From positions 21,390,001 through 21,454,000 of the forward strand of contig OZ260662.1 in the NCBI GenBank assembly GCA_965285935.1: a stretch of 64,000 bases of DNA, in the 5' to 3' direction. Below are positions 21,989 to 57,635 of this stretch, piece by piece. This stretch comes from Ophelia neglecta (Eukaryota). Positions within the stretch are counted from its first letter, which is position 1; every line of letters begins with the position of its first letter. Below the pieces are notes generated by a model that saw nothing but the letters and a program-made list of their open reading frames with translations, was not told the origin of the DNA and made no database searches. Both the position numbers and the translations under genes were made by a program.

Positions 21989-22154
21989 AATTCCAGTCAG
22001 GGGTGGCCCAGGCGTGCGGAACATATCATCCGAGGTGGCCATTGAAAGCGCACAGGCCGTGGATAGTACTTTCAATTCAAAACAAATTCATCCAAACAAT
22101 GTCAATTTGATATATTTGCCCACCCCATAAACTGCTTATATTATTGACAATCCC

Positions 22155-24890
22155 ATGAGTGTTGAAAAACTGTCTATGTGTATTTTTAACTCGAGGTCAG
22201 TTAGGAACAAAGAGACACTTATCAACGACCACATTGTGTCCAATGATCATGACATTGTTGCTATAGCTGAAACCTGGCTTCGCCCAAATGATGTGGATGC
22301 AGTGACAATAGGGAATATTTTGCCAGCAGGCTATAGTATTTGCCACCAGCCACGCATGTCAGGAGGTGGTGGGGGTGTAGCTATTATCCATAAAGATGGT
22401 GTTAGTATTCAGAAAAAAGACACTCATATATTTAAGTATTTTGAATTACTTGATGTAACTTTTAAGTCTGCTTCACTAATCCGTATCATAGTTTTGTATA
22501 GACCTCCACCATCAGCTAAAAATCAACTTACTGTGAACGGGTTTCTTCAGGAGTTTAGTGGCTTTTTGGAGTCGCTTGCTGCAGCTCCTGAGAAGATTGT
22601 TGTAGCTGGAGATTTTAACTTCCATGTTGGTGACAGTAATGATACTAATGCTTAAAATTTTCTTGAACTGTTAGCTTATTGCAATTTTGTATTGGGTTTG
22701 GTATGCTCAAAGTCAGAGGACAATATCATCAACAATTTACATGTGTCTTGTCCAATGTCAGACCACTTTGCTATTCACCTATCCCTTGATATAGGCAAGC
22801 CAAAAAATGAAACAAAGGTAGTAGCTTTTAGAAAGCTAAAATTTATGTGAATATAAATCAGATACATGTGAATATAAACCACATGTCCATTCATCCTCTC
22901 TTGCCTCTGTGTTTGAGGAATCTGTTGACTTAAACCAACTGTGTGAGGAATATGATTCAGTTTTAAAGTCCATTTTGGAACATGCCCCTGTCAAGAGCAA
23001 GAGAATTATTGTCCGGCCTGAGTCGTCGTGGTACAATGATACAATTCGTAATGCAAAGCATACTTGAAGAAAATTTGACCGCCTTTGGCGTAAAACAAAA
23101 CTGTCCATTCACCAGGAAATGTACAACGCTCAGGCCAACATTGTGTCTGCTCTGGTGGAGGATGCTAAAGCTAAATATTACACTGAGAGGGTACAGGAAA
23201 AGCCTAAAGATCAAAAAGCATTGTTTAATGTCATAAACTCTCTCCTCCATCGCAACAAAGAATCTCCGTTGCCCAGTCACAGCTCTGTTGGAGAGCTTGC
23301 AAACAGATTCTGCTAATTCTTTTCGGATAAGGTAGAAAAGATTCAGACCGACTTTAACCTGGTTCGCAACTATTGTCAAATTCCTCTCGGCCGAGGGGGT
23401 AAATTCGCTAGTGCCGTGCTTGATGTCTTTGAACCAGCCACATCTGATGAAGTAAATGTAAGTCAATTATAATAAAATCTCCTTCCAAATCATGTGAGTT
23501 CCTGACAGCTTCAAAAGTGCAAGACTTCGACCATTGCTTAAAAAAGTCCAACCTCAGTAAAGAAAAGCTCAAGAATTTCAGACCTGTTTCTAACCTTTCT
23601 TTTTTATCTAAGGTCACTGAAAGGGCTGTGGCTACTAGACTCATGGCTCATATTAATGACAATGGTATGGGTGAAATATTCCAGTCGGCCTATAAGCCAA
23701 TGCATAGTGTTGAAACGGCACTGCTCAAAGTGCAAGACGATATCCTCAAGGCCCTTGATGAAAAGAAGGGCACATTACTGGTCTTATTGGATCTCCCAGC
23801 GGCTTTTGATACTGTGAATCACAGCGTGTTACTAGACCGCCTGTGTAATAGGATTGGCGTCCAGAATGCGGCTCTTGCCTGGATTAAATCCTACATGTCG
23901 GACAGAACTCGGAGTGTGACTATCAGCTCTGTCACCTCAGAGGCTAGTACCCTGTCTTGGGGTGTCCCACATGGCAGCGTTTTAGGACCACTCCTGTTTA
24001 CCATTTATACATTACCACTAGGTGATATACTTAAGGAATATGATTCATTGTTTCATCTATATGCGGATGATACGAAGCTTTATTGCTCATTCAACCCTAA
24101 AATTGGGGGTGGCGCTTTAGCAGCTCTTTCTGGCATGGAGAATTGTGTTGAGTCTGTCAGACTGTGGATGGCAAGGAACTTTTAAAAGTTGAATGATGAC
24201 AAGACAGAGTTCTTAGTTATCCAGCCTAAATCATTTTTAGATGTAAAAGGGTTACATGACACAGTGAAAGTCGGCCAGACTTCTATAGAGGCTTCCCCTT
24301 CCGCTAGAAATATTGGGGTTGTCTTTAAGTCAAATGGGTCATTAGATAAGCATATCAGTTTGGTCTGTAGATCTGCATTCTATCAGTTAAGGAACATACA
24401 CCGTATCAAGAAATATTTGTCACAAGAAGCCCTTATCACAATTGTACGTGCCTTTGTCACTTCTAAGATTGACGGCATGAACTCTCTGTATGCAGGTTGA
24501 CCTGGCAATGTTACTCACAGACTGAGGCGGGTGTTGAATGCTGCTGCCAGGATGATCACAGGTACTCACTATCGAGCTCATATAACTCCAGTGCTTAGTA
24601 GACAGCTTCATTGGATACCTGTGGTTTACAGAATCCATTTCAAAATCTGCCTACTAGCCTATTTGGCGGAACTGTTAACCCCTTATCGATCAGTGAGGTG
24701 TCTTCGCTCGAATAATAAAAACGTGTTGGTTTTACCAAAGGTGCGTACATGCTTATATGGTGAGAGACGGTTCTCACATGTCGCACCGGTTCTGTGGAAT
24801 GCCCTTCCAGAGGAAACAAAAGCAGCTTCCACAGTAAACTCTTTTAAAATCAAACCTAAAACCCATTATTTTAGATTAGCTTTTGATTGA
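22155..24890 (+). pseudogene. L2 ORF2 (APE endonuclease + reverse transcriptase), multiple stops, frameshifts and deletions
   Basis: FNSRSVRNK, AETWL, LYRPP, GDFN (APE); NFRPVSNLSFLSK, LDLPAAFDTVNH, GVPHGSVLGPLLF, YADD (RT); LHWIPV...APVLWNALP...KTHYF (L2 C-terminus). Confidence 0.92.

Positions 24891-25111: not shown

Positions 25112-25163
<52 letters not shown>
25102..25163. repeat. (ATT)n microsatellite, the L2 3' tail
   Basis: About 20 ATT units directly after the L2 3' UTR. Confidence 0.95.
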
Positions 25164-25672
25164 GTAAAGAAGTGAGTTTTGTACTGTGGGTGACAAATGC
25201 TAACATATCGTGTACCGTCGATGGCTCCCATAAACGACATTGAAGCGAAGCCATTCACAATGATAATAAATGCGTAAATGTCACATAAGACGCCCCTGTA
25301 TGCATCATGCCCTCGATTGGACAGAATCGCACTTATTGGAGGGAATGATTGGACGAGGAGCACGAAATCGGCAACGGCCAGGTTCATTATGAAAACATTC
25401 TGAGGACTCCTGAGCTTTTTGCGGATCAGATAGGTGCTGAATATGACTAAACTTGAGAACAGTCCGACGGTTCTAACAAATGTCGTCTGAGCGATGGCTG
25501 CCGGTACAGAGGAATGCTCGACTACGGGTGAGCTTCCATTCGCGGTGAATGGCGGACGGGTCGTTAGACAAACGTACGTTCTACCCCGGTCCGCATCGTG
25601 AACATATCCCCTAGAAAACTTGGATTGAGGTAGTTCTATGAGTCTCGTCTCATTAAATGCAACTGCGTTCAT
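25160..25672 (-). pseudogene. Class A GPCR (melatonin-receptor-like) pseudogene, N-terminal half (N-terminus, TM1-TM3)
   Basis: 170-aa ORF with KKLRSPQNVFIMNLAVAD (TM2), LCDIYAF (TM3 Cys) and TRYVSICHP (cf. melatonin receptor NRYxxICH). Ends at a TAA supplied by the L2 tail. A splice acceptor (ttttttttattttcag) lies upstream near 25776. Confidence 0.88.
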
Positions 25673-36104: not shown

Positions 36105-36836
36105 TCATATAAGATATGGCTCTAAAAATATATTCATCAGAGTTTCTTTGATTCCTGCTTTAATCAAATAGGTTTGCAACATGTTTACTGGACAATTCAA
36201 AGAGTTGGTTTTTGCAATTACAACTTTGTTTCCCTCTCTGTAAACATCGTTTTTGGCAGATTCTACGAATATTTCTACATATGTATCACAAAAGGTTAAA
36301 TCACATCTTCTTATTCTAGACAGCTCATTGTAACGAAAAAATCCAGCATATGCTATTAAACACACAGTGATTGTTCTTAAATCCTTCAAGTTAGCTTCTT
36401 TTGAATCTAATTTCTTAACTAAGTCCGACATTATTTCTGGCGTAACCGGTTGCTTTTTTAGCACTGGTTTGCTTGGAGCCCTTCTCGCAGCTTCCACTAG
36501 TTGCTTACATATCGAATGTTCTGTGGGGTCTGGTGATCCAGCAGTCTTCTGAGCCCATGCGATTGCAAAATAATATCCATTAATAACGTTTTTAGAGTCG
36601 CCCGCTTGAAGCCGCGATAAAAGAAAAAGCGCGACAGAGATATGAGTCGCTGGCATGTGAGTTGATTCCTCGAAATGACCGCACCATTCTTTAAACTTAT
36701 TAAACTGTCTTGAATATGCCTTGATAGTATTTGGTTGCCTGCTAGCCAACACCGTTGCTGGTAGGTCCTCTGCTATTTTTCTTAATGTTGGGTCCTTCAA
36801 CGATCTCAGCTGTGTCCATGCTTCCTGCCTAAACAC
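36105..36836 (-). pseudogene. Tyrosine recombinase, N-terminal part (SAM-like domain and first catalytic Arg), cut by the LINE insertion
   Basis: TIKAYSRQFNKFKEWC, DPTEHSICKQLVEAARR, IAYAGFFRYNEL, SAKNDVYREG, CPVNML; joins 30100-30384 once the LINE and one TSD are removed. Confidence 0.92.
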
Positions 36837-37360
36837 GTCTGAAAATATATCATGATATTAGATATGTATGATTCCGTAATATGGAACTGTTATGCATAAG
36901 CGCCGTTTTCCTCCTCTCTTATCATTAATAAGATAAAAGCGTAGCTCTGATAAAAATCGTAGGTATATCGAAATTCGGAATATTATACCCTTCTTTAATT
37001 GCGTTCTATTTCTATCGACGTTTTCTCTCATTAACAAGGCCATGTATGCCTATTTTCACTTCTATCGACTTAAGCCCGTGGCTACCGTGTCGATGATCAT
37101 GTTATAAAATCTTATAACGTCTTATCTTTCCCCTTTGAATTGACTTAAGCCCGTGGCCACTGCGTCAAATCCCCTTTTCGTATTCTCTATTTATTGTGGA
37201 CTTCCAGAGTTTATTGTTCTTTTATTCAATTACACTTGCTGTAACCTCTTCTTTGATTTGATCAATATATTCAATTTCTGAAAGTATCATTGTTCTAAGA
37301 TACTATAATTCATATAATCTCGCACTGTTATGCTTGCGTCTGTATCAAAATGTACGTTAC

Positions 37361-39256
37361 CTAGGTTTTGAAATCAATGCGGAGGGATATTCCGTCTCCC
37401 TTAAATTTCTGCGATCCAAATAATGATTTTTTATTTTTCCCTTTTCTAAAAGGCTGTTTCAGTACTAAGGAGTGCTTGATGAACTCTTTGCATTTGTATT
37501 GATCTTTTGCAAGAAAGGGCCAGCTTTCACACGATTTCCATAGTGGCATTATGAGAGTACCTCTTGCTCTGTTTTCCCGCAATTATTTTATTACTCTTGG
37601 TATCAGATACAAAGGCGGAACAAGCCAGTTATTGTCTTTGTTCCAATTTTGTGTAAATGCGTCGATTGCTTCTGTTCCGGTATTCCAAAATTTTGAATTG
37701 AATATTTTTGTTTTGTTGTTATCTGCTGAGACAAACCTATCAATATCATACGGTCCCCATTGCATTGACAATTTTTGAAAACATTCTTCTGAAACATACC
37801 AATCATCTAAGTCTATTATTCTGGATAAATAGTCCGCCTTTTCATTTTCAGATCGAGGGATCCAGCTCACATTCAGATCGATTTGTTGTTTATAGCAGTA
37901 TTGTGTGATTTCAATGGCTAATTCCTGAAGATTTTTTTCCTTCTTCCTTTTTTGACTATATTCACAACGTTTTGATTATCGTCAACCATTTGATTTCTTT
38001 GCCAAAAAATATTTGTGCAAAAGATGATATACCGGAACACACGGCTTTCGATTCTCTCCATGTGCTACTCTTTGCCGCGTCTTCTACAGACCAATTGTGA
38101 TGTGAAACCATGTTTCTGTTGTGGCTCCCAGAGTCTACAAAACGGGCACAACCTACGTTACTCGCGTCAGAGTAGATTACCGGACAGGACATTGAAGTCT
38201 TGCTACTGAATGGTTTGCCATTGAATACGTGTATGTTCTCCCGCCAAAATTGTATTGAGCGTTTTGACTGCATTGATAGGTTGACCCATGAGTCCCAGCC
38301 GCCCACTCGTGCGCATATGTCTGTCATCAATGGCTTTGTCAGAATGTGTACTATATCACCGTACGCTGGCCAGCAAGAAGTAATTTTGCCCGATAGTTTT
38401 GCCAATTGTCTGTACGTTAATGTACCGTGTGCGTGGGATTGGCTTACCTTCTCAACCATGTCTATTATGTCAGACAGTTTTGCCTGTGGCACAAACAACA
38501 TGCCTTGGATGCAATCGAACTCGAATCCTAACCACGTTAATACTTGCACTGATACCCTAATATTAAGTCAAATGAAAACATGAAATACCCAGCTTTAGTG
38601 AATTGGCGTGCACATTTAACATCCTCGTATTTTACGGTTCTCTTGTAAACATATTTGTTAACGTGCCTTAGGTCTAGAACTAGCCTCTTTTTTCCTGAAC
38701 TCTTTTCTGACACTGTTCACGGGTTGATCACTGTAGGTTTTTGTTTTTGACACTCTAGAATACACCCTGCTGATAGAAGTTCAGCAATAGTTTCTTCCAC
38801 GAAACTGCTCTCTTTTAAACTTGATCTATTATTCTTCAAATATATTGAGGGAGGCGTGTCTATCATTGGTACTATATAACCTTCTCTAATAACGTGTAAA
38901 ATTTCTTTACTAGCTCCTATGGATTCCCAAAACGTAATTCTATCTTTCAGTCTATTCTTAACGGTGATGGGTTGTCCCGTTTGTTCATACAATTCGTAAT
39001 TATTGGTATGGTAAGTATACTTTTCACTTATCTTATTTTCACTGCTGTTTTCCTCCGATGTTATTGGTACCGTAGTTGATGTTTTGGTCTTGATTTTGTG
39101 GACATCGTCTGGACCAGTCCCCCCTGACCCCGCAAAAGAAACAGATATCTGAATCGCTTGGTTGTTTGGGGCCCATGGGTCTTGGGAATATTTGGGCGTT
39201 GTCCTGGTTGTACGTGTTGAAGCGACGAAAAGAATTATAACTAGGATTGCGGTCAT
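37361..39256 (-). pseudogene. DIRS-type pol: RT (core deleted), RNase H and methyltransferase-like domain
   Basis: FWESIGAS..IREGY, KKRLVLDLRHVNKY, FSFDL, TWLGF, YSDAS, SSTWRE, WIPRSENEKADYLSR (RH), DIDRF...DAFTQNW..WLVPP...MPLW (MT). Several stops and frameshifts. Confidence 0.9.
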
Positions 39257-39717
39257 TTTGCCTCTGAGCTTCTTTTGCCGATAACATTTCGACGGGCAGC
39301 TTCTTCGGACTTCCGAATCTTTTTGTCATCGTCGCTATCTGACGCTAAATCTCGTGAAAGGTATTCTCCAACGACGGCCCAGCCTAATTCTGACTGATCT
39401 GCTAGCTTTATCAGCTTATTTCGTCTTTCGATTAACTGGTTACCTTCGTCTAAGGCGTCTTTGGCTTTTGTGAACTCTCCGTTGTCTAATTGTTTCGATG
39501 CTTCTGTGATATGCTGCTGCACTTTTATGTTGAGCTCGTGCTGTTCCTTGTGTCCTTTCTTTTTGAAAGTGTTAATGGTGCCTTTCACTTTTTTAGACAA
39601 CGCTTCGTAATGTTCTTCTTGTTGTCTTTTAAGACTTTCGAATTTTTGGTCCAAAACTTGTAGTAATTCCTCTTTGGATATTCCGTTTTCACAGCCTTTG
39701 TCCATGCTGGATTTCAT
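39039..39717 (-). pseudogene. DIRS-type gag-like ORF, frameshifted, with degenerate zinc knuckle
   Basis: ERRNKLIKLADQSELGWAVVGEYLSRDLASDSDDDKKIRKSEEAA, then CFFCGVRGDWSRRC (CCHC with H to D) in the next frame. Confidence 0.85.
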
Positions 39718-39741
39718 GGCTCGACTTTATCCACCGGTCGA

Positions 39742-39984
39742 TGTTTGACGTGTGGCTGCCTCGAGAGCTAGGTCCGAACTGACAATCCGCCCGCCTAAAA
39801 CCACACAACCCGAACCTACAGCTCTTATGTCATATAGGCCTAGGCCTAGGCCTTTCAAACCCGTTCTCGTTCACGATGACCCGCTGTACCCTCCCTTATA
39901 CCGTAATCTCTGGATTACCGCATCAAAACTACCGAGAAAACATTTATTCGCTTATTCGTTTCTCAACCGCGAATAAATTATATT
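39742..39984. repeat. Split direct repeat A1 (5' end of the YR element)
   Basis: Copy of 29582-29818. Confidence 0.95.
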
Positions 39985-43750: not shown

Positions 43751-45267
43751 TTTTTTATGTGCGCCCCCTTGCATGTTCGAGAGTAACAGGAAGCATTGTA
43801 GACGGCAGATGAGTGCCTGTTTAAAGTAATATTTTGTGAATGTAGTGGAAAGGAAACTCATGGCTGAAGTAAATTTGATGCCAATGATTGGAATTACTAT
43901 TTATATTTTATTACTGTCGAAGCGCTGCCAGTTATAACGACGCTACTTGTTTCTGCTTTTCTTTCCTCTACAAAGTCTTCATCTATATTGACATCTACGA
44001 ATTTGACCTTTATGAGTTCCCTTTCGTACGAATAAAACGCGAGCGGATGTCTGCGAGACACAAACAACGCAAAGCTGGGTTAAAGACTGAATTCATTTCA
44101 TCTATTCAAACACATCCTGAATTGCAGCTCCAGGCTCTACCTATCAATCATCAGCATCCCCGGGGAAATAACCCACAAAGTGTTTCATTTCGAGGCTGCA
44201 CCCCAAAAAATGAAAGAAGCAATAGCATATTTGAATAGTTGTACATATTTGAAGTGATGTAAATTTAAGGATTTGCAGGAACGTTTTGTTCAATTTAATA
44301 CTGTATGCATTAACCCGTATCCCTAGTTAATCGCCTTGGATACTAATTCTAGTTACTCTGGCTAGGTATTTGATTGATGAATCAGGTAGCCTATACCTTT
44401 AATAGGAGATCCTGCACACTACATGTGCATTTCGTCAACAAGTTTGCTGCTGTGGATGTATAGTTGAATATGAACTAGTTATGAAAAATAATTCTAACAG
44501 TTCGAAGTACATGTACTAGTATTGACAATTTGTGCCATATGTATAGATATTAACTTACTAATATATTACAGGAAAGCTCTATATTGTGTGGTTGATATTA
44601 CACTTTCACCTGTGCAAATGACAATGATGGAGGATAAAATTTACCGAACATTCAAGCTTAGTATAATACTTTGCCTTGTTGATACAATTTCGACCTCTTA
44701 ACGACAAAAAGAAAGCCCCTGAATTTGGTAGCTTGGTCATGATAAAGCCGTCTGCTCTATCTGTCCTTGTTTGTTAGATTCACGCCACTTAGTTAATTAC
44801 ACGTGCATGAACATTCATACGAGAGGCCTAAAACTTCAAGTCACGATAATTTCATGATCAAGATTGTACTTCAATTGTATTTTGAGGTTATTATATTGGC
44901 AGATCGCCCAATCAGACAGTTCGTGTTCCTTTGACTGTTAAAAATTTAACTAATTGTCATCTGTGGCGAATAATAATAGATACACAATAGCTCCATCAAA
45001 TTATTACCTATAGACTTCGTGAGGTGAGGTAGCTTAGACACTGTTCTCGGTAAGAACAAAGAGAACTTAAACATTTAGTCAGTAGATTGCAAAATTTGCT
45101 TAACCATCTTCTTCAAAAGCTATCAGTATTTCAACAAGCGAACGTAGAGTGTTTTATTCAACAAAAGGGAATACACCCTACGTGTTGTACAGTCAATACA
45201 TCTAAATGAACATACATGGCGTCAGAGAGACCATTAAATGCTTACAAATTCAATGAATAATATGGAA

Positions 45268-48200
45268 TCAGTAATTATAAGATTTATGTATATCAGATGC
45301 TTTTCTGATGTAAATTGCTAAGTTATTTAGAGTTTTACTATTGGCAGATCTAAGCAGTTCCATCAATTTGTATACATTAGGCCTTACTACATAGTATCTT
45401 GGAATATATCTGGCACGTAGTTCGAAAAATAAACAACATTCCAATACAAAATGGTATTCATCGTCCAACTTATCACATACACTACATTTGCGGTCTGAAA
45501 ACTCTACAGGTGGCCTTTGCCAGCTGCCCCTCTCCACATACAAATAATGATTGCGACACCTAAATCTGCACAGGGTTTTTTTATTCTTGATGCTCACATC
45601 ACAGTCCATATAAGAAGGCAGAACACCAAAGTCTGGATGAACAAACCGGTAAAATATACACTTTGAGGAATCGTTTATATTCCCATGCCAATCTTGCTTA
45701 TAGCAATCAAAGAGTCTCTGTTTAAATAACACTATAAATTGTTTTACATCGGCAACACCTTGATTCAGCCAAGCTTCTCCGAAACCGTATTTGAACAGAA
45801 GAGATTTTACTTTACTGGCCCAATTATCCTGCTGTATTCTGCTGTATAACATTAAATATACTTTTTTCATTAGCTTATTACCACCTACTTGAATAAGTTT
45901 AAGCCACAATTTAATTATATTTAGGTACCTATTAATTTGTAAAGGAAACCGATTAAGCTCCCCATAAACCATTTCATTCTTTGTACTGTCTTTTAAGTTT
46001 AAAATACTTTTACAAAATTTGAGATGAACCCTTTCTACATTCACCCCCCGATGAAAGCCCCATAGTTCAGAGGAATAGTTTAAAACAGGAAGAACTAATT
46101 TATCAAATAAAGAGCACATGTCCGTGGGGCTCATGTTATATCTATATGTGTATTTTTTCAAACAAAAAACTGCTTTCGTGGCCTGCTTCGCCAGGGTCTC
46201 CTGGGCTGCCGTCCAAGAGCCGCCCGCTGATAAGACTAAACCCAAATAAGAAAAGTTCGAGACTACTTCTAATTTTGCTGTTTTATACTTGAACCCCAGA
46301 TTCCCCGGTAACCTACCCCCTTTTCTAAAAACTACTACTTTAGTTTTTTCTGTGCTTAACTTCAATTTCCATGTTTCACAATATGTTTCTAGTGTTTTCA
46401 GTCCTGATTGCAGACCCTCCGGCGTATCTGCCAATATGACGGCATCATCAGCATACAGAAGTATATAGAGCTTAATATAATCAATGCTAATTCCTGTGGG
46501 TTGTTGGCTATTAGATAATTCATGATCAAGATCATTAATGTAAATGGAAAATAAAAATGGAGAGAGGCTTTCGCCTTGACGGACGCCTAATAAACATTCA
46601 AACGACTCACTAATTTCCCCAGTCAAGGACCGAACAGCTGATTTAACACAAGAATACATGCTTTTTATAACATTAAAAAGCTTGCCAGAAATTCCTAACT
46701 TAATAAGTTTATACCAGAGACCATTTCTATTGACATAATCAAAGGCTTTACGGAAGTCAATAAAGCAGCAGTATAATTGTTTTTTAGAATTCAAATAATT
46801 TGATATAAGCCCATGCAGAACAAATAAATTGTCTATTGTACCATAGCCAGCACGGAAGCCTGCCTGACCTTCGATATACACCCCATACTCCTCTGCCCAA
46901 GAAGTCAGGCGATTGTTAAGAATGCGAGTGAACAGCTTTGCCAGTACGCTAAGTAACGTTATCCCACGATAGTTTTCAGCTTGGTGTAAAGAGCCCTTCT
47001 TATGGATGGGTAAAATGATACCATCTGTCCAAGAGGACGGAAAGTCACCTGCACTCAAGATATTGTTAAAGAGCCCCTGCAACGACGGCACCAAATCCTC
47101 TGCATAAATGAATATTTCATTAATCAGTAAGTCGGGCCCTGCCGCCTTACCAGCCTTAAGCTGCCGAATCGCTGACAGAATCTCACTTACAGATATCTCC
47201 GTATCCAATTCACTAAACATAGACTCATCTCTTACATAGTTTTGCACAAATGAGTTATATTCATCAGCAATCTCAAAGTCTTCAATATTTGGGGGGTTAG
47301 AAATAGTTTTGAAGAAATTATAGAATTCAGCCATTTCAATGTTTGGGTAAACACGACTAGCTGAACCTTTCAACATTTTCCAGTATAATCTGGCATTATT
47401 CTTACGGGCATCTAGCAATGATTTTGTTTGACCTACGCTATGTTTCTTTTTACAAATATCAGCGTGCTGAGAGTATTTAGATCTGGCCAATCTCAAATTC
47501 GCTCGAATATCTTCGATACTATTCTGTCTATATAAATCAAGCTTTTCATGAAATTCATCTCGCAAGATCTTGCATTTATTGCACATCCACGCAGGAGTAT
47601 CAATAACTGGTGTAGTTCGTACAACATATGGCCGGATTTGTTTGCCGAGAAGAGGCAACGCGACATCAAGTAATTTATCTGTATATTTAGTAACCTGGAT
47701 GTCAATGCTATCATTGGAGTTAACTATATGATTTAAACTACCGAGAGCACTATTTAATGAGGCTCTAAATTGACCTACACATTCTGAATTCCAAACTAAT
47801 TTAGTACTCATCACTGCAGGTTTGCTCTCCGGCTTATTACCCAATTTTTTAAGTTCAAATTTAAGAGGGCTATGGTCACTCATTACATTTGGGTCACCTA
47901 CAGAAAAACTAGAGAACAGAGCAAAATCTGACTGCTTACACAGTACATAATCTATAACACTTGCTCCGACTCCACCTATATATGTATATTTACCACAATC
48001 TTTATCATTCCCAAGCCGACCGTTTGCAATACGGAGGCCGGTAGCACAACACAGATCTAGTAACCTGTGCCCATAATTATTAACAGTAACATCCATTGAA
48101 GTTCTTGGTAAAGTAGAATCATCAGCATACTCTTCGGGCAGCAATATATGATCAGAAGAATTATTATCGAATCGAACAAAATCATTCAATACCCCAGTTC

Positions 48201-48705
48201 TGGCGTTAAAGTCCCCAGTCACAATATATACATATCTATCTGGTTGTACACTTTCGAACTCTGCAATATGGGACTCCAACAAAGCAAAAACATTCGGTGA
48301 GTCTGGAGCTCTAGTCGAGTCCTGAGGGACATTATAAACCAGAGCGATCAAAATGTCTTTATCACCAACAAAATATACTTTAGACAGTTTTAACCATAAT
48401 ATACAATCTTTTACTTTTTTTAGAATTGTTATTCCCTTCGCCAGATGCGACCGAAAATAAACGGCAATACCACCTGAAAGCCTTTTTGCTCTAGGGTTAA
48501 GTTCTTCTCTATGCGCATAAACTGCGTCATATCCGGGAATATCCAGGTTTTGCAAATCATTGCCCCATGTTTCGGTAAACAACAAGATGTCAGATTGATC
48601 CACAATCTCCAAGAACTGGGGATCTAAAATCTTGGAGTAAGTTTTCGTTGCAAGACCTCTGATATTCCAGACCAGGAAGGACAGATCAGTTACCGATTGT
48701 GGCAC
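45268..48705 (-). CDS. LINE ORF2: APE, RT and C-terminal CCHC-like motif (intact, no initiating AUG)
   Basis: 1145 codons; VWNIRGL, TETW, GDFNART, IDY, SDHSP; NYRGITLL, DFRKAFD, GVRQGESLSPFLF, YADD; CSVC...DEYHFVLEC. Confidence 0.94.
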   Translation of the reverse strand: MPQSVTDLSFLVWNIRGLATKTYSKILDPQFLEIVDQSDILLFTETWGNDLQNLDIPGYDAVYAHREELNPRAKRLSGGIAVYFRSHLAKGITILKKVKDCILWLKLSKVYFVGDKDILIALVYNVPQDSTRAPDSPNVFALLESHIAEFESVQPDRYVYIVTGDFNARTGVLNDFVRFDNNSSDHILLPEEYADDSTLPRTSMDVTVNNYGHRLLDLCCATGLRIANGRLGNDKDCGKYTYIGGVGASVIDYVLCKQSDFALFSSFSVGDPNVMSDHSPLKFELKKLGNKPESKPAVMSTKLVWNSECVGQFRASLNSALGSLNHIVNSNDSIDIQVTKYTDKLLDVALPLLGKQIRPYVVRTTPVIDTPAWMCNKCKILRDEFHEKLDLYRQNSIEDIRANLRLARSKYSQHADICKKKHSVGQTKSLLDARKNNARLYWKMLKGSASRVYPNIEMAEFYNFFKTISNPPNIEDFEIADEYNSFVQNYVRDESMFSELDTEISVSEILSAIRQLKAGKAAGPDLLINEIFIYAEDLVPSLQGLFNNILSAGDFPSSWTDGIILPIHKKGSLHQAENYRGITLLSVLAKLFTRILNNRLTSWAEEYGVYIEGQAGFRAGYGTIDNLFVLHGLISNYLNSKKQLYCCFIDFRKAFDYVNRNGLWYKLIKLGISGKLFNVIKSMYSCVKSAVRSLTGEISESFECLLGVRQGESLSPFLFSIYINDLDHELSNSQQPTGISIDYIKLYILLYADDAVILADTPEGLQSGLKTLETYCETWKLKLSTEKTKVVVFRKGGRLPGNLGFKYKTAKLEVVSNFSYLGLVLSAGGSWTAAQETLAKQATKAVFCLKKYTYRYNMSPTDMCSLFDKLVLPVLNYSSELWGFHRGVNVERVHLKFCKSILNLKDSTKNEMVYGELNRFPLQINRYLNIIKLWLKLIQVGGNKLMKKVYLMLYSRIQQDNWASKVKSLLFKYGFGEAWLNQGVADVKQFIVLFKQRLFDCYKQDWHGNINDSSKCIFYRFVHPDFGVLPSYMDCDVSIKNKKTLCRFRCRNHYLYVERGSWQRPPVEFSDRKCSVCDKLDDEYHFVLECCLFFELRARYIPRYYVVRPNVYKLMELLRSANSKTLNNLAIYIRKASDIHKSYNY

Positions 48706-50082
48706 CTACACTGCCCGCGGCTGTCCGGTGTCGGGAGGAAGGCCTTGATCTCCCACTGGCGGGTTGACTGTTCCCGTACCGCCATCAGCCGAAGGACCCG
48801 CCTCCTGTGTTCCATGCAGAAGATCATTCTGCTGTGTCCGTATGCCAGTGGAGACAGGGACTGTTTGTCCTTCACTCGTACTCCTCATTACTGATGATGA
48901 TGTGGCATTTGGCCTGGGCGCAGCAAACTGTTGATTGCCCGCTAGGTTGACAGACGCAGTTACAGGACGGTCGGCCGGAATCATTCCCGGAGCACGATGA
49001 GCAATCAGCGGAGGTGGCATAACAGGTCCAGTTGTGGGTCTTGCCGCCCTGCTATAACTGGTTTGGGAGGGTAGTTGCGGACGCTGAGTCCCATAGCATG
49101 GTCTCGTTTGTTGGATTGATGCGTCGTATGGACCATAATAATTTACAGACCTGTAGGTATTTTGCGGAAATCCTATTGTTTGCTGATGTAATGGCTGCTG
49201 CGGAGGAGAAAATGCTGCCACACCTGCAGCACCGGCAGGACCACGGTGCCAACTTGTCTCGGGAAGCTCCCTTATTGGGGTTGATGTAGCCATGAAATTT
49301 GCCTGGCCAGTGTTTCTGAATCCAGGAAAGCAGTCAATCACAACCACTGAATCCACCACGAGTGCAGCTGGAAACCTTATTACAGCATGATTTCCTCTTC
49401 TTCTTGCCTCGTGCATCTTGGGAAGGAGAGACTTTCTAGCATCCCTAATTACTTTCGGCAGGTCTTTTGAAATCTCCTTTTCCTTATGCCTTGTGCGGGC
49501 AGCGTCTAGAATATTGTTGACAGCCCATTCATCACGAAAACACGCAATGATCGGGCGCGCCCTTCCCCTCGATGCCCCTAGACGGTGAGAACGCTGGATA
49601 ACAATGCTTTCTACCTGGGCATCAGAAAGGCCCAAATCTACGGAGAAATACGATGCCAGCACATCCCTGGTGTTTTCTCGGTGTCCTTCCTCCCTTGTGT
49701 TATGGAAGATTAGATTAAGCCTTCGTGAGCGTGCTTCCAGGTCAAGCAGTTTGTATTCCATAACACTGATTGCTCGATGTATGTGGTCATTCATTTGTTG
49801 CTGTTGTACAGACCATTGTTCAAGGAGTGTCACGCGCCTATTGTATTCATGAAGGGTGGCTTGCGTACCTTTCACAATGGCCAATACCTCCTTTACATTT
49901 TGGTCAGTGCTGTGCTCAGGATTCATTTCTATTACCGTGTCGTTAAAATTAAGCCTTTTCCTAACCTGGAATGAAGTTTCACTGGTATTAGAAGTGTCCT
50001 GTCTTTGTCTTTTCTTTGTCTCTCTGTTGGTATCCGTAATATTTTCAATAATATTCTCAGTGAAATGAAAGGCAGCTTCCAT
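48706..50082 (-). CDS. LINE ORF1 (coiled coil, L1-like RRM/CTD, Pro/Gln-rich tail)
   Basis: ATG at 50082; LLDLEARSRRLNLIFHN, IQRSHRLG, RPIIACF, ISKDLPKVIRDARKSLLP are L1-ORF1-like motifs. Confidence 0.88.
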   Translation of the reverse strand: MEAAFHFTENIIENITDTNRETKKRQRQDTSNTSETSFQVRKRLNFNDTVIEMNPEHSTDQNVKEVLAIVKGTQATLHEYNRRVTLLEQWSVQQQQMNDHIHRAISVMEYKLLDLEARSRRLNLIFHNTREEGHRENTRDVLASYFSVDLGLSDAQVESIVIQRSHRLGASRGRARPIIACFRDEWAVNNILDAARTRHKEKEISKDLPKVIRDARKSLLPKMHEARRRGNHAVIRFPAALVVDSVVVIDCFPGFRNTGQANFMATSTPIRELPETSWHRGPAGAAGVAAFSPPQQPLHQQTIGFPQNTYRSVNYYGPYDASIQQTRPCYGTQRPQLPSQTSYSRAARPTTGPVMPPPLIAHRAPGMIPADRPVTASVNLAGNQQFAAPRPNATSSSVMRSTSEGQTVPVSTGIRTQQNDLLHGTQEAGPSADGGTGTVNPPVGDQGLPPDTGQPRAV

Positions 50083-50479
50083 CACCGAGCATGCGCACAC
50101 CGAGCGTAACTGATATCCATATTACACACTCAGGCTTATGAGGTCAGCAGGTTTAAACAAGCATTTATCATGTTCGCAGAAAAATAAATTGATAATTTGC
50201 CTATGTATATAAACAGGCGTTGTGGACCTTTGGAATCATATTAAGGACTAGATCAGGCATATGGAATGTTAATATTCTGATGGGTGACTTCTTCTTGAAC
50301 CGTACTTAGTTAGGCCTTAGTTGGCCTTTTTTTTAACATCTGTAGTATACAGCTGCAATTGCTTTGCGAAATATTGCGTTCAGTCTATGGCTAGGACACA
50401 TGTGATCATGTCTCACTCATAAACGAATGTTGCAGATGCCCGTGTTCAGTCACAATAAAAATGAGATTGGTTCTTTACT

Positions 50480-52736: not shown

Positions 52737-55700
52737 TTAGACAAAGTCATTGAATCTTGTAGGTTTGCGGCGGATCCGAGAGGAACGTCGAGGGGCCTCC
52801 ACGGCTGGTATTGCATCCTGTGCTTGGGCAGATGGTTCAGGCACCAGGGGATCAAGATCTGGCCGGTTGGTCTCCACGGGGGGCGTCAAAGCTTGAGGAA
52901 TGTCAGGTGGTTCAGGAAAGGTTGGTCGGGGGGCCTGGGTGGGCAACGGGGTCCCGTCATCAATGTCGGAAACATCAGAATCAAACTCTCCTCGCGGGTT
53001 ATGGGTGGGAACTAGGCGAGGGCCCTCCACCAGGATGCAATCAGACCTGCGAACCTGGTACACACGGGCGCGCAACTGGCGACCTGAGAATTTGCGTATA
53101 TAGACCCAGCCATCCTCCACCTTGGTGACAAGATATCGTGGTCTTGCTGTGGTTTTAGAAAGATCAGATGTGATGTAAACAATGTCACCAACACTGACGT
53201 TAGGTACAGGACCTGCATGGTGATCACCAAATTTGGATTTTATACTGAACGGGTGGTTTTTAGTGCGATTTTCATGTTGCTGGTGACCCATGTGTTCATC
53301 ATCCACTGGGATAACATCACCAGTGTGCTGATCGCGCATGGTGACAAACTCACGGGCAGACACTCCTCTGTCGCGATAACGTGAGTTGAGGGTTGACACT
53401 GCGATGGTTAGGTTGTCCATGGATACAGGTTGGGCCATTGGATCCTGTCTAAGGAGCTCTTGTTGAAGTTCCGAAATGGCCTTCTCCGCCACTGGGTTTT
53501 TATTGGGGTTCTTTTCTCTCCCAATGACAAGCCTTATGCGGCACTTCTTCAGATGGTCATTCTCAATCAGGCTCTGGAACCCTGGCGCAGGGTCCACCCT
53601 AACAGTGCTTATCGGACCGCTTAGGGGCACGAGGGGCACGCAGAGATGAATAAGGCCATCCCTCAGGGATGTTGCCTGCTCGTCTGGTAGTAAGCAGGCA
53701 GAAGTATAACTGGAGAGGTTCTCACGCACTACAAGTATCATTTGGCGTGAGCGTCGCATGACATCAGCACTGAAGGCAGTGCCGAATCCAGCAGGGGCAT
53801 CAGATGTAGTGAATTCAGGTAAAGGCTGGGGACATTTCTTAAGGGAAGTACATTGGTGACAACCGAGGCTGGCATTTTTAATGGCCGCTGCGCTGTTGAG
53901 GGCGTAGAAGTATCGGTTGAAGTGGAGGCATAGTTGGTGCTCAGTGGGATGCTTTAACTCCAGATGAATGGATGACAGGATCCCAGGGAGAACACTCCCA
54001 GGTACGACGATGCGCTCACGAACTGGCTGAAGGGGTTCATGGGTACGAACGACCACTAAACCATCATTTGACAGGGTGGCACGCTGCAGCAGACGTTTCA
54101 CATCACCTGCATTCGTGACTTTCTTAGAAGGTCGCGTGCCTTGTTTGAGGTGGGCTCGGGTTCTGCGAAGGGTATGACATTCTGATTGGATATCACGCCA
54201 GGCAGCCCTGGAGGTGTACAGGCATGGGGTGCTTGGGGTATGGCAGATGACAGGCAGGTCCTGCATCTCATTGACAAATCGGCACACCTGACAGTCGCTT
54301 GAGTTGCATTCTATAGGTTGACGACTCAAAAAGTCACTTGGTAAGTTGTGTTTGCCACTGAGGTGTAACAGTGTGACTCCATACCTTGATAGGGTACTGA
54401 GAAAGGTGGTGATTCGGGGGCTCAAGGAAAACTGACCGCGACAGAGTTTGGCGTATGACTGGACGCATGCCTTACTGTCAGTGAGGGCATACGGTTCCTT
54501 CTTGGTCTGTACGAAGCAGGGAGCAAAGTGCTTCAGCGTAGAAGCAATACCCAAGGCCTCCACCTCGCACGGTAGCCAACGAGTTTGGTGGGGACGCAAC
54601 TTGGCGCTGAAGAAGCCAGCGACCAACAGCTTGTTGTTTCTTTCAACAAACAGGGTTCCGCCCACACCAGCGGGGCGGAGGGCTGCATCGCTAACCATCC
54701 AAAGCTGGTCATCGGGACGTGGAAGGACAACTGACTTGGCCTTAAGCAGGGCCTTCTGCGTACTGTGGAAGACTGCGGCAGCCTCTTCAGTCCAGTCGAT
54801 AGGGGTGATGCTTGAAGAGGAAGCGGTCATGTCCTCCAATGGTGCCAAGTGGGAAGCGGCACCCGGAATGACGCGAGACAAGGCCTTAAATGATCCGATA
54901 TAGGAGCGGAGGGCCTTGACATTTTTGGGCAATTCGCATGTGGTAAGGGTATTAAGTGAGTGCCTGCATGCTGATATGGTACCTCCTTCCCACTTCCATC
55001 CTAGGATGACGGTGGACCCAGGGCAAATATGGGTCTTTGTTGGGGAGAGTCGAAGGTTACACTCATGGAGGGTGTGCAGTACAGAACGCCATCTGGACAG
55101 TAATTCAGGGATGGTGTCAGCGCCACACATCAGGTCGTCTGCAATCTTAACGACGTGACCTGCTGCAATCAATGTGCCAAAAACGCGGGACATTAGTTCT
55201 TCAAGCGCCGTCTCAGAACCAGGCATTCCCATGGCTGAGCGGCGGTACACACGTATACCTTTAAAAGGTGAGACAATACCACAGTATTTGAGAGAGTCGT
55301 GGCTTAAAGGTATCTGGTAGAATGCACTTGTGAGGTCGCTTGTTATCAGGTATTTCCAAGAAGCAATGGAGCGAAGTGTAGAGTTAACGTCTGCCATGAG
55401 AGAGGGTTGAGGTTTAGCGTAACGACCAACCTCAGCGAAGGCAGTCACAAGACGGTACCCGCCCTGGGGTTTCCGGACCAAAAAGGATGGATTCAGGTAC
55501 TCCACAACAACTCCTGCGGCTTCCGGGGTGGAGATAATGCCCATGGATTCCAGCTGGTCCAGCTTTTGTTGTAATACATCAAGTCGCTCTCGAGAATACT
55601 GTGGTAGGCGGCCCTTTCGTTGTGGAGGTTGGACCGGCCCCATGTTTACGCGAGCCTCGAATGGGCCAGCAGCTCCATTATAACCAGACAGGAAGGGATC

Positions 55701-57563
55701 GAATACATTGTCGTACTCCTTGTGTAGGTCTCGAAATTGCCTAATCTCTAGTGAGGACAAGACGGTATTGTCGTTGAGGGGTATGCAGCTAGAGAAGAGG
55801 GACTTAGCAGCACAGCTTGAACGAGGCACAGAGGATGGTGCGGGAATGTCAGTCCTCGGTAGTGCTACACTGTCGCAGTCGATCAGGGTTGTCACACTGC
55901 AAATATGGTGCCCTCTTGGTACATATATGGGCTGCGATGACTTGTTGGGCAAGCAGATAGCTCCAGCACGTAGTTCATACTCACCTGGACATGGCCAGGG
56001 CTTGGTACCCATTTGGTTACGGGAGAGGCTATCGGTGCGTGGTTCCACGAGACATGCGTTGGTCTCTGTGTTGATGGAGACTGGGAGATGTAAAATCTCG
56101 CCGGGCCACACAACTGTGGAATTATCAGGTCCCCTGACCACAGAAGTCATGGAGTGGAACACACGGGCCAGACCGGACTTATCACTATTGTACCTAAAGG
56201 TGGAACCGTCTTTAAATACTATTTTCTGCTGGTGGAACACCACAGTTACCTGATTGCTCTCCAAGAAAGGCTCACCCGCCAGGATGGGCACAGCGAGGGA
56301 CTTGCACACAAGTGCCTCAAAGTAGAGGCACAAACTCTTGTGCATGAAACTGAACACAGTTTCACCTATGACTTGCAGGTTTGAACAACCGTCAGCCTGA
56401 CTAGGGCGTTGGGACGTGTTTGATCTAATGTTCAGTCCTAGGCGACGAGCCTCATCTTCTCTTATGCAGTTGCTCTCGGCACCGCAATCCAGCAGTACGT
56501 GAACTGCCATACCCTTATAAAAACCATCTATGTATGGTGACCGCCTGATGGCTACTCGGGAAATTTCGGGGGAGGTGGCTTCATGAGCAGGTATAGAAGA
56601 GGTGCACACGTATGGGTCCTCCTGAGCTCCATCATTGTCGGAGGATTCAAGGTCGTCTTCCACCTCAATCTGGTGAGTGCGTGTAACATAGCGTCGGTCA
56701 TGTTCTGGAAGATGAGAGCACTCGCTCAGGAAATGGTCAGTTCGGCTTCTGCCAGCCTGCTGACACAACGGGCATACTTTTTGACGGTTAGGTCTGGGAG
56801 GGGCTTTGCGGGCCTGGCGGCGATTTTTCTGGGGCTGGGAGACATACATGGATCGCATGGCCTCAGTTGACTGCAGTTCTTCCATTAGTGCCGGTAATGC
56901 CTGCGAAATTTCTGGCTTGATAGACGCAAGTGTGCGTGACCTAAGTTCAGTGCCAAAACGGGTGCCAATCAATGAAGGGAGGTCCTTATGAAGTAATGAC
57001 AACCAGGTGAGAACAACAAAGTTCTCAAGGGAAGGTGATATTTCCTCGTCTTCTATGGGGGCAATACCATGATGAGTGACCCCACCCCCCATGGTGAGCA
57101 GATTGTCCTCAACCATAGAGTTGATCCGTTGGTACAGGTCTTCCGGCTTTTCATCAACACCCTGTTTTATCTCAGCCAACTTGAGAAAATATGCCCCAGT
57201 GTTTTGTAGACCATAGTGCAGTCGAAGGGCAGCCCAAATATCTTTCAAAGAACGGGCTTTCTTAGTGATTGAAGACCGTGAAATTATTGGGCAGTAATTA
57301 GCAATTTGACCCAACATTAACTCAAGACTGGCGCACTTCTGCTCTGCAGTGCGTCGGTTGGGGTGGTCTTCTGGGTCACTTAAAATGCCCCTTGTTTGGC
57401 GAGTGCGACTCTTAGGTTCCCATCGGAAATCATCTTTGAGAAAAGGGGTGAAATTTGTATCGAGACTAAGTACGTATATCAAATTTTGGCGCCAATTCTC
57501 GAAGGATTGGCTTGTTTCGTCTTTTTGGAGGGACCACTGTTTCGGTGCTTTACTCACCGCCAT
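52737..57563 (-). CDS. Gag-Pol polyprotein (gag with CCHC, aspartic protease, RT, RNase H, DDE integrase)
   Basis: Uninterrupted ORF, first ATG at 57563; CPLC..HFLSEC, LLDCGAE, DLTSAFYQ, MGMPGS, IADD, SDAA..CEVEAL..TDSK..SDFLSR, H..H..CHQC, ADV..VDP..AEK. Confidence 0.95.
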   Translation of the reverse strand: MAVSKAPKQWSLQKDETSQSFENWRQNLIYVLSLDTNFTPFLKDDFRWEPKSRTRQTRGILSDPEDHPNRRTAEQKCASLELMLGQIANYCPIISRSSITKKARSLKDIWAALRLHYGLQNTGAYFLKLAEIKQGVDEKPEDLYQRINSMVEDNLLTMGGGVTHHGIAPIEDEEISPSLENFVVLTWLSLLHKDLPSLIGTRFGTELRSRTLASIKPEISQALPALMEELQSTEAMRSMYVSQPQKNRRQARKAPPRPNRQKVCPLCQQAGRSRTDHFLSECSHLPEHDRRYVTRTHQIEVEDDLESSDNDGAQEDPYVCTSSIPAHEATSPEISRVAIRRSPYIDGFYKGMAVHVLLDCGAESNCIREDEARRLGLNIRSNTSQRPSQADGCSNLQVIGETVFSFMHKSLCLYFEALVCKSLAVPILAGEPFLESNQVTVVFHQQKIVFKDGSTFRYNSDKSGLARVFHSMTSVVRGPDNSTVVWPGEILHLPVSINTETNACLVEPRTDSLSRNQMGTKPWPCPGEYELRAGAICLPNKSSQPIYVPRGHHICSVTTLIDCDSVALPRTDIPAPSSVPRSSCAAKSLFSSCIPLNDNTVLSSLEIRQFRDLHKEYDNVFDPFLSGYNGAAGPFEARVNMGPVQPPQRKGRLPQYSRERLDVLQQKLDQLESMGIISTPEAAGVVVEYLNPSFLVRKPQGGYRLVTAFAEVGRYAKPQPSLMADVNSTLRSIASWKYLITSDLTSAFYQIPLSHDSLKYCGIVSPFKGIRVYRRSAMGMPGSETALEELMSRVFGTLIAAGHVVKIADDLMCGADTIPELLSRWRSVLHTLHECNLRLSPTKTHICPGSTVILGWKWEGGTISACRHSLNTLTTCELPKNVKALRSYIGSFKALSRVIPGAASHLAPLEDMTASSSSITPIDWTEEAAAVFHSTQKALLKAKSVVLPRPDDQLWMVSDAALRPAGVGGTLFVERNNKLLVAGFFSAKLRPHQTRWLPCEVEALGIASTLKHFAPCFVQTKKEPYALTDSKACVQSYAKLCRGQFSLSPRITTFLSTLSRYGVTLLHLSGKHNLPSDFLSRQPIECNSSDCQVCRFVNEMQDLPVICHTPSTPCLYTSRAAWRDIQSECHTLRRTRAHLKQGTRPSKKVTNAGDVKRLLQRATLSNDGLVVVRTHEPLQPVRERIVVPGSVLPGILSSIHLELKHPTEHQLCLHFNRYFYALNSAAAIKNASLGCHQCTSLKKCPQPLPEFTTSDAPAGFGTAFSADVMRRSRQMILVVRENLSSYTSACLLPDEQATSLRDGLIHLCVPLVPLSGPISTVRVDPAPGFQSLIENDHLKKCRIRLVIGREKNPNKNPVAEKAISELQQELLRQDPMAQPVSMDNLTIAVSTLNSRYRDRGVSAREFVTMRDQHTGDVIPVDDEHMGHQQHENRTKNHPFSIKSKFGDHHAGPVPNVSVGDIVYITSDLSKTTARPRYLVTKVEDGWVYIRKFSGRQLRARVYQVRRSDCILVEGPRLVPTHNPRGEFDSDVSDIDDGTPLPTQAPRPTFPEPPDIPQALTPPVETNRPDLDPLVPEPSAQAQDAIPAVEAPRRSSRIRRKPTRFNDFV

Positions 57564-57635
57564 GCTTTTCCTGAAGGTTAACTGGGGGCTCAAACGGTGC
57601 TATGGGTGCTCCGGTGCGGGTTCGATTTCATGGAA

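Follow-up and report, generated by a model that had tools for sequence, protein, structure and literature searches.

In the window analysed here, a stretch of 64,000 nucleotides (nt) of Ophelia neglecta DNA (assembly GCA_965285935.1, contig OZ260662.1, positions 21,390,001 to 21,454,000 of the forward strand), we found a full-length long interspersed nuclear element (LINE) whose two open reading frames, ORF1 and ORF2, lie in one frame, separated by a single UAG and with no usable AUG at the start of ORF2. This layout, to which an earlier note made from the letters of the window alone had drawn attention, is confirmed in the sequence and recurs in 40 related families, which conserve the frame, the identity of the stop and the base at +4; an empty site for the window copy is present in sequencing contigs. 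Readthrough to a fusion of about 1600 amino acids (aa), which the earlier note had suggested, is the best-supported reading of these comparisons. With in-frame UAG-G conserved across a deep clade, the ORF2 protein (ORF2p) is likely made by occasional readthrough of the UAG, as a 1,604-aa ORF1p–ORF2p fusion.

The ORF1–ORF2 junction in the window LINE

The features of the element are as follows (RRM, RNA recognition motif; CTD, C-terminal domain; APE, apurinic/apyrimidinic endonuclease; RT, reverse transcriptase; UTR, untranslated region).

50105 to 50108, minus strand: TACG at the 5′ end, probably one copy of a 4-nt target-site duplication (or else microhomology); the four letters fit both sides of the joint
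45143 to 50104, minus strand: full-length LINE of 4,962 nt, skipped by contigs that join 45142 to 50105
48709 to 50082, minus strand: ORF1, 458 aa from the ATG at 50082, L1-type (type II: coiled coil, RRM, CTD), with a Pro/Gln/Gly/Ser/Thr-rich tail
49324 to 49740, minus strand: RRM-CTD core of ORF1 (residues 115-253), from the core alignment
48706 to 48708, minus strand: single in-frame UAG followed by G, the predicted readthrough site (read from sequence; TAG-G in 35 of 40 related in-frame families)
48667 to 48705, minus strand: AUG-free linker of 13 codons between the stop and the first Asn of the endonuclease, beginning with GTG (6-247 codons in relatives)
45268 to 48705, minus strand: ORF2 frame, 1,145 codons plus TGA, with no AUG before codon 204
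47872 to 48672, minus strand: APE-type endonuclease, ORF2 residues 12-278 (Pfam PF03372, Exo_endo_phos, E 4e-12)
48094 to 48096, minus strand: first AUG of ORF2, codon 204, within the endonuclease (from the translation)
46234 to 47007, minus strand: RT, ORF2 residues 567-824, YADD at 751 (Pfam PF00078, RVT_1, E 1e-35)
45433 to 45486, minus strand: C-terminal Cys/His motif CxxC...H...CC of ORF2, read from the translation
45147 to 45267, minus strand: 3′ UTR, with AATAAA at 45158-45153, read from sequence
45143 to 45146, minus strand: TACG at the 3′ end, the other copy of the probable duplication (same empty-site joint, flank sequence)

On the minus strand the junction reads CGG GCA GTG TAG GTG CCA CAA TCG GTA ACT GAT CTG. 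Both ORFs are otherwise intact, as had been claimed: the TAG (48708-48706) is the sole internal stop across the 1,605 codons of ORF1 and ORF2, which include 65 Gln codons. The first Met of ORF2, previously placed about 200 codons in, is codon 204 and comes after three of the five named motif residues of the endonuclease (N14, E45 and D165; D252 and H278 follow it). Judging from the known APE fold, a protein started at codon 204 would miss N14, E45 and D165, and its endonuclease would thus be dead. An AUG overlapping the ORF1 stop or lying soon after it, which defines stop-start translation, is absent from the window LINE.

A profile built from ORF1 and eight relatives matched the human L1 ORF1p structures 2ykp and 2yko (E 5e-10 and 8e-10, respectively), and with 2ldy included the matches of this profile of nine ORF1s ranged from 5e-10 to 3e-9; a match to the Pfam family Transposase_22 was reached by no single member of the nine. 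A coiled coil, an RRM and a CTD together are described as the type II ORF1 (PMC4120745). The C-terminal tail of the window ORF1 comprises 196 residues, 68% of which are P, Q, G, S, T, A or R.

The LINE is a discrete insertion without long terminal repeats (LTRs), and comparison of the window with itself gave one self-match only. An APE endonuclease followed by an RT, TACG on both sides and AATAAA near the 3′ end identify it as an APE-type non-LTR retrotransposon, and the solved proteins nearest to its ORF2 are R2 and L1 ORF2p. Contigs of runs X2 and X3, which come from one sample, join 45142 directly to 50105 and omit the 4,962 nt. Since the empty site is present in the sequencing sample, the insertion is recent enough to be polymorphic. 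We conclude that the window LINE was recently inserted, from an RNA carrying the TAG. Its 5′ UTR is just 22 nt long, and an out-of-frame ATG 10 nt ahead of the ORF1 ATG opens an 11-codon ORF (50092-50057, minus strand) that overlaps the ORF1 start.

The earlier note had named a sense codon at the TAG or an ATG at the GTG of sister copies as refuting its reading, and neither was seen among the differences listed. The only sister contig spanning the junction (1,534 nt) shows 36 differences from the window copy: the GTG after the stop is CTG, not ATG, the fourth and sixth codons are changed synonymously, and the TAG is unchanged among the differences listed. A 1-nt deletion at 49436 in its ORF1 suggests that the contig may represent a dead copy, and it was therefore given little weight.

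Stop identity and context in related families

Related loci were collected in two sets. Set 1 comprised 80 metagenome loci retrieved with an endonuclease alignment; 59 of them allowed both the first endonuclease motif and an in-frame stop ahead of it to be located, and these form 39 families at 60% identity. An ORF1-core profile, seeded from 17 in-frame ORFs of this set, found the core in 31 of the 59 loci. ORF1 ends in frame exactly at the stop in 22 of these and continues without a stop in 2; another 3 keep the frame but have an additional stop within the motif. The remaining 4 are not in frame: two have cores far upstream, 1.9-3.6 kb away, and two are frameshifted copies. Sorting of the 39 families gave 26 in-frame junctions, 7 ATG-start, 1 stop-free and 5 unreadable; the in-frame 26 have TAG in 23 cases (22 TAG-G) and TGA in 3, where it is followed by CGA, CGG and GAT.

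For set 2, RT motifs from ten aligned ORF2 proteins led to 79 further loci in genome assemblies, to which the profiles of set 1 were applied; these loci are evidently host DNA binned with bacteria. The motif was present in 21 loci, 20 of them with an upstream stop, and an ORF1 core lay within 1.5 kb in 16. Twelve of these 16 end in frame at TAG-G, and the remaining four are two broken copies (L089 and L105) and two distant outgroup members (L141 and L148). Once L085, L098 and L082 (read by hand) are included, set 2 holds 14 in-frame families, none common to set 1, with 13 TAG-G and 1 TGA-T. In total, 159 related loci yielded 40 in-frame families with less than 60% endonuclease identity to each other. 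Scans of viral contigs and a first scan of genome contigs found no relative, and a search with the ORF1 alignment found no long fused ORF1–ORF2 protein among 8,000 candidates, which is a weak test. Many of the loci L081-L159 are whole eukaryotic LINEs in contigs of bacterial genome bins, more than 12 of them in one bin, which represents host contamination of species-representative genomes. In the broken copy L089 (1400-1570), an exception within the in-frame clade, ORF1 ends out of frame at TAG CGG.

The comparison with related families that had been called for shows that the in-frame junction recurs in 40 of them, with TAG in 36. The junctions read TAG-G in 35, TAG-C in 1, TGA-C in 2, TGA-G in 1 and TGA-T in 1, and none has TAA. 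In the same loci TAG makes up 21% of other stop triplets and is followed by G in 18% of cases, and 17 whole ORF2s, among them that of the window LINE, terminate in TAA (8), TGA (5) or TAG (4). The base at +4 is G in 36 of the 40 families, against 30% expected at codon position 1; a purine occupies +5 in 34, and G is enriched at +8 and from +10 to +15. In set 1 the first codon after the stop specifies Gly, Glu, Asp, Ala, Arg or Val, which argues that the constraint is on the base and not on the residue. Linkers vary from 6 to 247 codons, with the frame kept in all, and in L004, L005 and L006 no alignment of the DNA could be made by eye before the TAG, whereas the sequence after it is conserved. 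No ATG lies 7 or more codons ahead of the endonuclease Asn in 38 of the 40 family representatives. Very long open in-frame linkers occur in L027 (247 codons, with Asn/Asp/Cys-rich repeats), L098 (136) and L102 (103).

The contexts resemble those of known viral readthrough sites. Type III sites include the hexamers UAGGGV, UAGGUA and UAGGAU, and type II sites are the alphavirus UGA-CGG/CUA and the UGACGA of a zebrafish endogenous retrovirus, according to the classes listed in PMC13517186. By those classes 14 of the 40 families carry an exact type III hexamer and 1 an exact type II, and the TAG GGG TGT CAG of L036 fits the pattern UAG GGR NGU CAG given there for Moloney murine leukaemia virus (MoMLV). 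Two of the four UGA families are UGA-CGR (L075, UGA CGG; L022, UGA CGA).

A few loci depart from this pattern. The stop-free L033 (466-4446) is 5′-truncated, and its ORF1 CTD runs into an intact ORF2 of 1,152 codons with a CAG near the expected place of the stop; in L025 a 27-nt deletion relative to L068, between short direct repeats, removes the TAG, and ORF2 is broken. As support for a fusion these two joins are suggestive only. Within the in-frame clade, L024 (313-480) has an overlapping ATG.

RNA structure and alternative routes to ORF2p

The earlier note had further pointed to possible stems after the stop and drawn a comparison with gammaretroviral UAG readthrough, which is stimulated by a structure 8 nt downstream. 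These stems correspond to the following feature.

48659 to 48697, minus strand: hairpin at 48697-48685 and pairing of 48689 with 48659, plus a possible weak pseudoknot; not above chance

The stems are thus present in the sequence, but they do not exceed chance: the first 100 nt after the window stop hold 17 stems of at least 5 bp against 17.1 in shuffles, and the hairpin at +12 has only -1.1 kcal/mol. Fold z-scores in three windows from the stop were +0.3, +0.1 and -0.4, that is, no excess folding in the window copy. The sister contig disrupts the hairpin (G-U to A-C) and retains an alternative +12/+38 stem. A gammaretrovirus-type structure was not borne out in the relatives either, with no excess folding in 26 families and no excess pseudoknot potential in 40. 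The scans were simple, covering local folding, H-type pseudoknots and long-range duplexes, and a distant or protein-bound element could escape them.

Several of our observations weigh against readthrough. The mean fold z after the stop is -0.1 to -0.2 in 26 families plus the window, pseudoknot and stem ranks are 0.50-0.57 across the 40 families (0.5 being chance), and a common long-range partner was not found in 18 whole elements; type III contexts are described as generally weak without a downstream structure (PMC13517186). The window's own UAG GUG CCA is none of the listed type III hexamers and not type II, and it lacks a G-rich run, while the sister contig has C in place of G at +4. Within TAG-G families, L044 has TAG-T and L060 and L061 have TAA-G. 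The 39 set-1 families were sorted by eye after the data had been seen, with one representative each, and 13 were set aside (the 7 ATG-start, the fused one and the 5 unreadable), including L046 (420-540), an exception within the in-frame clade that has an intact ORF2 and neither an ATG nor a long in-frame ORF1. A confirmed in-frame ORF1 core is missing in 8 of the 26 set-1 in-frame families, and a single assembly supplies 10 of the 14 set-2 families. As the families are kin, p-values that treat them as independent overstate the evidence. Finally, both bicistronic LINEs described as tested, L1 and SART1, use termination-reinitiation (PMC5972666 and PMC2881922). As to the atypical context of the window stop, the position of the stop may have shifted in the window family. 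The sequence GGA GAT CAA GGC CTT at 48754-48740 (minus strand), 46 nt ahead of the stop, resembles what follows the stop in L022 and other relatives.

The main alternative, termination at the UAG followed by an in-frame, AUG-independent restart directly behind it or at a GUG or CUG, would release free ORF2p, as in the coupling of L1 and SART1, for which termination-reinitiation is the tested route. In its favour, the codon right after the stop is a near-cognate start in this subfamily, GTG in the window copy and CTG in the sister contig; the G at +4 resembles the Kozak +4, and no stimulatory structure was found in the window copy or the families. L1 ORF2 is also said to need no AUG, a finding credited to Alisch in 2006. 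However, GTG comes first after the stop in only 2 of the 40 related families, which speaks against GUG reinitiation as the general mechanism that the earlier note had offered as its second option; ATG, CTG and ACG never do, and most families have GGN, GAN or GCN. In 12 of the 26 set-1 families the linker holds no near-cognate start at all, and a Kozak-like excess of purine at -3 is not seen (26 of 40, p 0.44). A restart also leaves unexplained the UAG in 36 of 40 families, the lack of UAA, and the leaky exceptions UGA-CGR and UAG-C. We consider it unlikely.

The conserved TAG-G could instead be a 3′ splice or trans-splice acceptor, by which an upstream AUG would be spliced to ORF2. TAG|G, kept by 35 of 40 families, fits the acceptor consensus YAG|G, but a polypyrimidine tract was not found: the pyrimidine fraction in the 20 nt before the stop is 0.43 against 0.44 locally in 26 families, and 0.40 in the window. 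The UGA variants are no acceptors, an ORF1 in frame would be unneeded, and among the DNA-contig joints listed none falls at the stop. Moreover, under cis preference a spliced RNA would be copied back and ORF1 lost. Splicing is therefore very improbable. The odds are poorer still for A-to-I editing of UAG to UIG (Trp), with the fusion made from edited RNA as at the amber/W site of hepatitis delta virus. Editing likewise predicts an in-frame UAG, and a UAG with a 3′ G is a favoured ADAR context. It needs a duplex over the stop, and none above chance was found in the window or in 26 families; it would also yield daughters fused through TGG, which occur in 0 of 40 in-frame families (the stop-free L025 and L033 arise otherwise), and it leaves the UGA families uncovered. 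That TAG is a sense codon of an altered host code, or a nonsense mutation in the formerly fused ORF of a dead copy, has nothing beyond the appearance of the single copy in its favour and is refuted by codon counts (one TAG beside 65 Gln in 1,605 codons, with TAG ending the window's other LINE ORF2 and 4 of 17 ORF2s) and by the recurrence of the stop at this junction across 40 families, which come from several assemblies.

Clade placement and the predicted fusion protein

Trees were quick IQ-TREE runs with SH-aLRT support only. The RT tree has 47 rows, and the endonuclease tree excludes 13 rows that were frameshifted or short. In the RT tree the window LINE falls in a 99-supported group of seven rows, all TAG-G; in-frame junctions are scattered through the entire ingroup, and six ATG-start elements form one 94-supported group, whose relation to the in-frame lineages the tree does not settle. 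Three of five ORF1 pieces from the ATG-start group match Lipase_GDSL_2 (GDSL esterase) at E 2e-5 to 9e-4, below the cut-off. RTEX elements are reported to have an esterase ORF1 (PMC3905857), and a mean length of 4,937 bp is given for curated RTE-X elements of bivalves (PMC10294476), close to the 4,962 nt of the window LINE. Given this length and its placement in the RT tree with the LINEs of esterase-like ORF1 (a named relative comes from Mercenaria), the window LINE is likely a member of RTEX (RTE-X), a label that does not occur in the supplement of PMC11203168. It differs in that its ORF1 is L1-type and not an esterase, and the esterase-like lineage starts ORF2 with ATG whereas the window lineage does not. 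Junction type follows ORF1 type here, which amounts to one lineage contrast and no evidence of co-evolution. In the outgroup element L148 an L1-type ORF1 goes together with a conventional layout.

Other mobile elements lie elsewhere in the window. A second, distant LINE (30530-35600, minus strand; 25% RT identity) has an intact ORF2 of 1,184 codons with endonuclease and RT, and its ORF2 ATG overlaps the end of a broken ORF1, a conventional layout. An LTR-type gag-pol at 52737-57599 (minus strand) is an intact single ORF, 1,620 codons long, in which protease, RT and RNase H-like matches were found. A degenerate element at about 36050-39800 (minus strand), which by eye we take to be DIRS-like, contains a tyrosine-recombinase-like ORF (36105-36857, weak Phage_int_SAM_1 match) and RT-like pieces upstream. 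Fragments of a third LINE (endonuclease and RT matches) and an exon of a rhodopsin-family G-protein-coupled receptor were found at 22131-24185 (plus strand) and 25160-25687 (minus strand); the exon points to an animal host.

Under readthrough, most ribosomes would stop at the UAG and release ORF1p, and a small share would insert a residue there and continue into ORF2. Gln, Tyr or Lys is the residue inserted at a read-through UAG. Through its coiled coil the fusion would be taken up into ORF1p trimers, which would bring the enzyme to its own encoding RNA, with the long low-complexity tail of ORF1 serving as a tether; since no protease is encoded, it would stay uncleaved. What acts as the signal appears to be the context of the stop rather than a local pseudoknot: UAG-G-purine followed by G-rich sequence up to about +15, with UGA-CGR and UAG-C as variants. 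The leak is therefore probably low. Basal readthrough of engineered premature stops in L1 ORF2 has been proposed to suffice for low Alu mobilisation (PMC4176336), and by analogy a low leak may be enough for the element.

The closest parallel is the gammaretroviral Gag-Pol of MoMLV (type III of Beier and Grimm), in which a structural and an enzyme ORF likewise share one frame across UAG-G, with a purine-rich run after the stop. The window element differs in being a non-LTR element without a protease and without a detected +12 pseudoknot, and its relatives match the MoMLV spacer loosely, at 2.7 of 7 positions against 1.9 expected. UGA CGG in L075 and UGA CGA in L022 are like type II readthrough, although this is a minority context here and the extended stem-loop was not found. 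With human L1 and silkworm SART1 the window LINE shares an L1-type ORF1 and an ORF2 with APE endonuclease and RT. In those elements, as predicted for the window LINE, ORF2 output is coupled to ORF1 translation, L1 having a 63-nt spacer and an AUG and SART1 an overlapping UAAUG, as described in PMC5972666 and PMC2881922; in contrast, the window LINE has no spacer and no AUG, and its frame is fixed.

We lean towards the view that a deep and widespread LINE clade uses structure-free programmed UAG-G readthrough to make a Gag-Pol-like, uncleaved fusion that would act within the ORF1p trimer. Readthrough would then add a third way of obtaining ORF2p to stop-start and scanning reinitiation, one that the sister lineage with an esterase-like ORF1 would have lost or never acquired. 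Readthrough is already known in retroviruses and RNA viruses, and at a LINE ORF1 stop it would be a new variant of that recoding; no report of it in a LINE was found in the literature, subscription journals, Repbase and Dfam lying outside the search. To our knowledge, how ORF2p is produced from bicistronic LINE RNA is a long-open question that has been answered only for L1 and SART1, in both cases by reinitiation. The 40 families, at less than 60% identity, offer natural variants for a direct test (UAG-G, UAG-C, UGA-CGR, stop-free and ATG-start). On this reading, database proteins of the clade are annotated with too late a start, four of the five closest matches beginning behind the first endonuclease motif. 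If readthrough holds, UAG-G would operate in these elements without the structure that viruses need, and a LINE polymerase would be active as an uncleaved ORF1p fusion, which would give cis preference a physical route and set the ratio of ORF1p to ORF2p.

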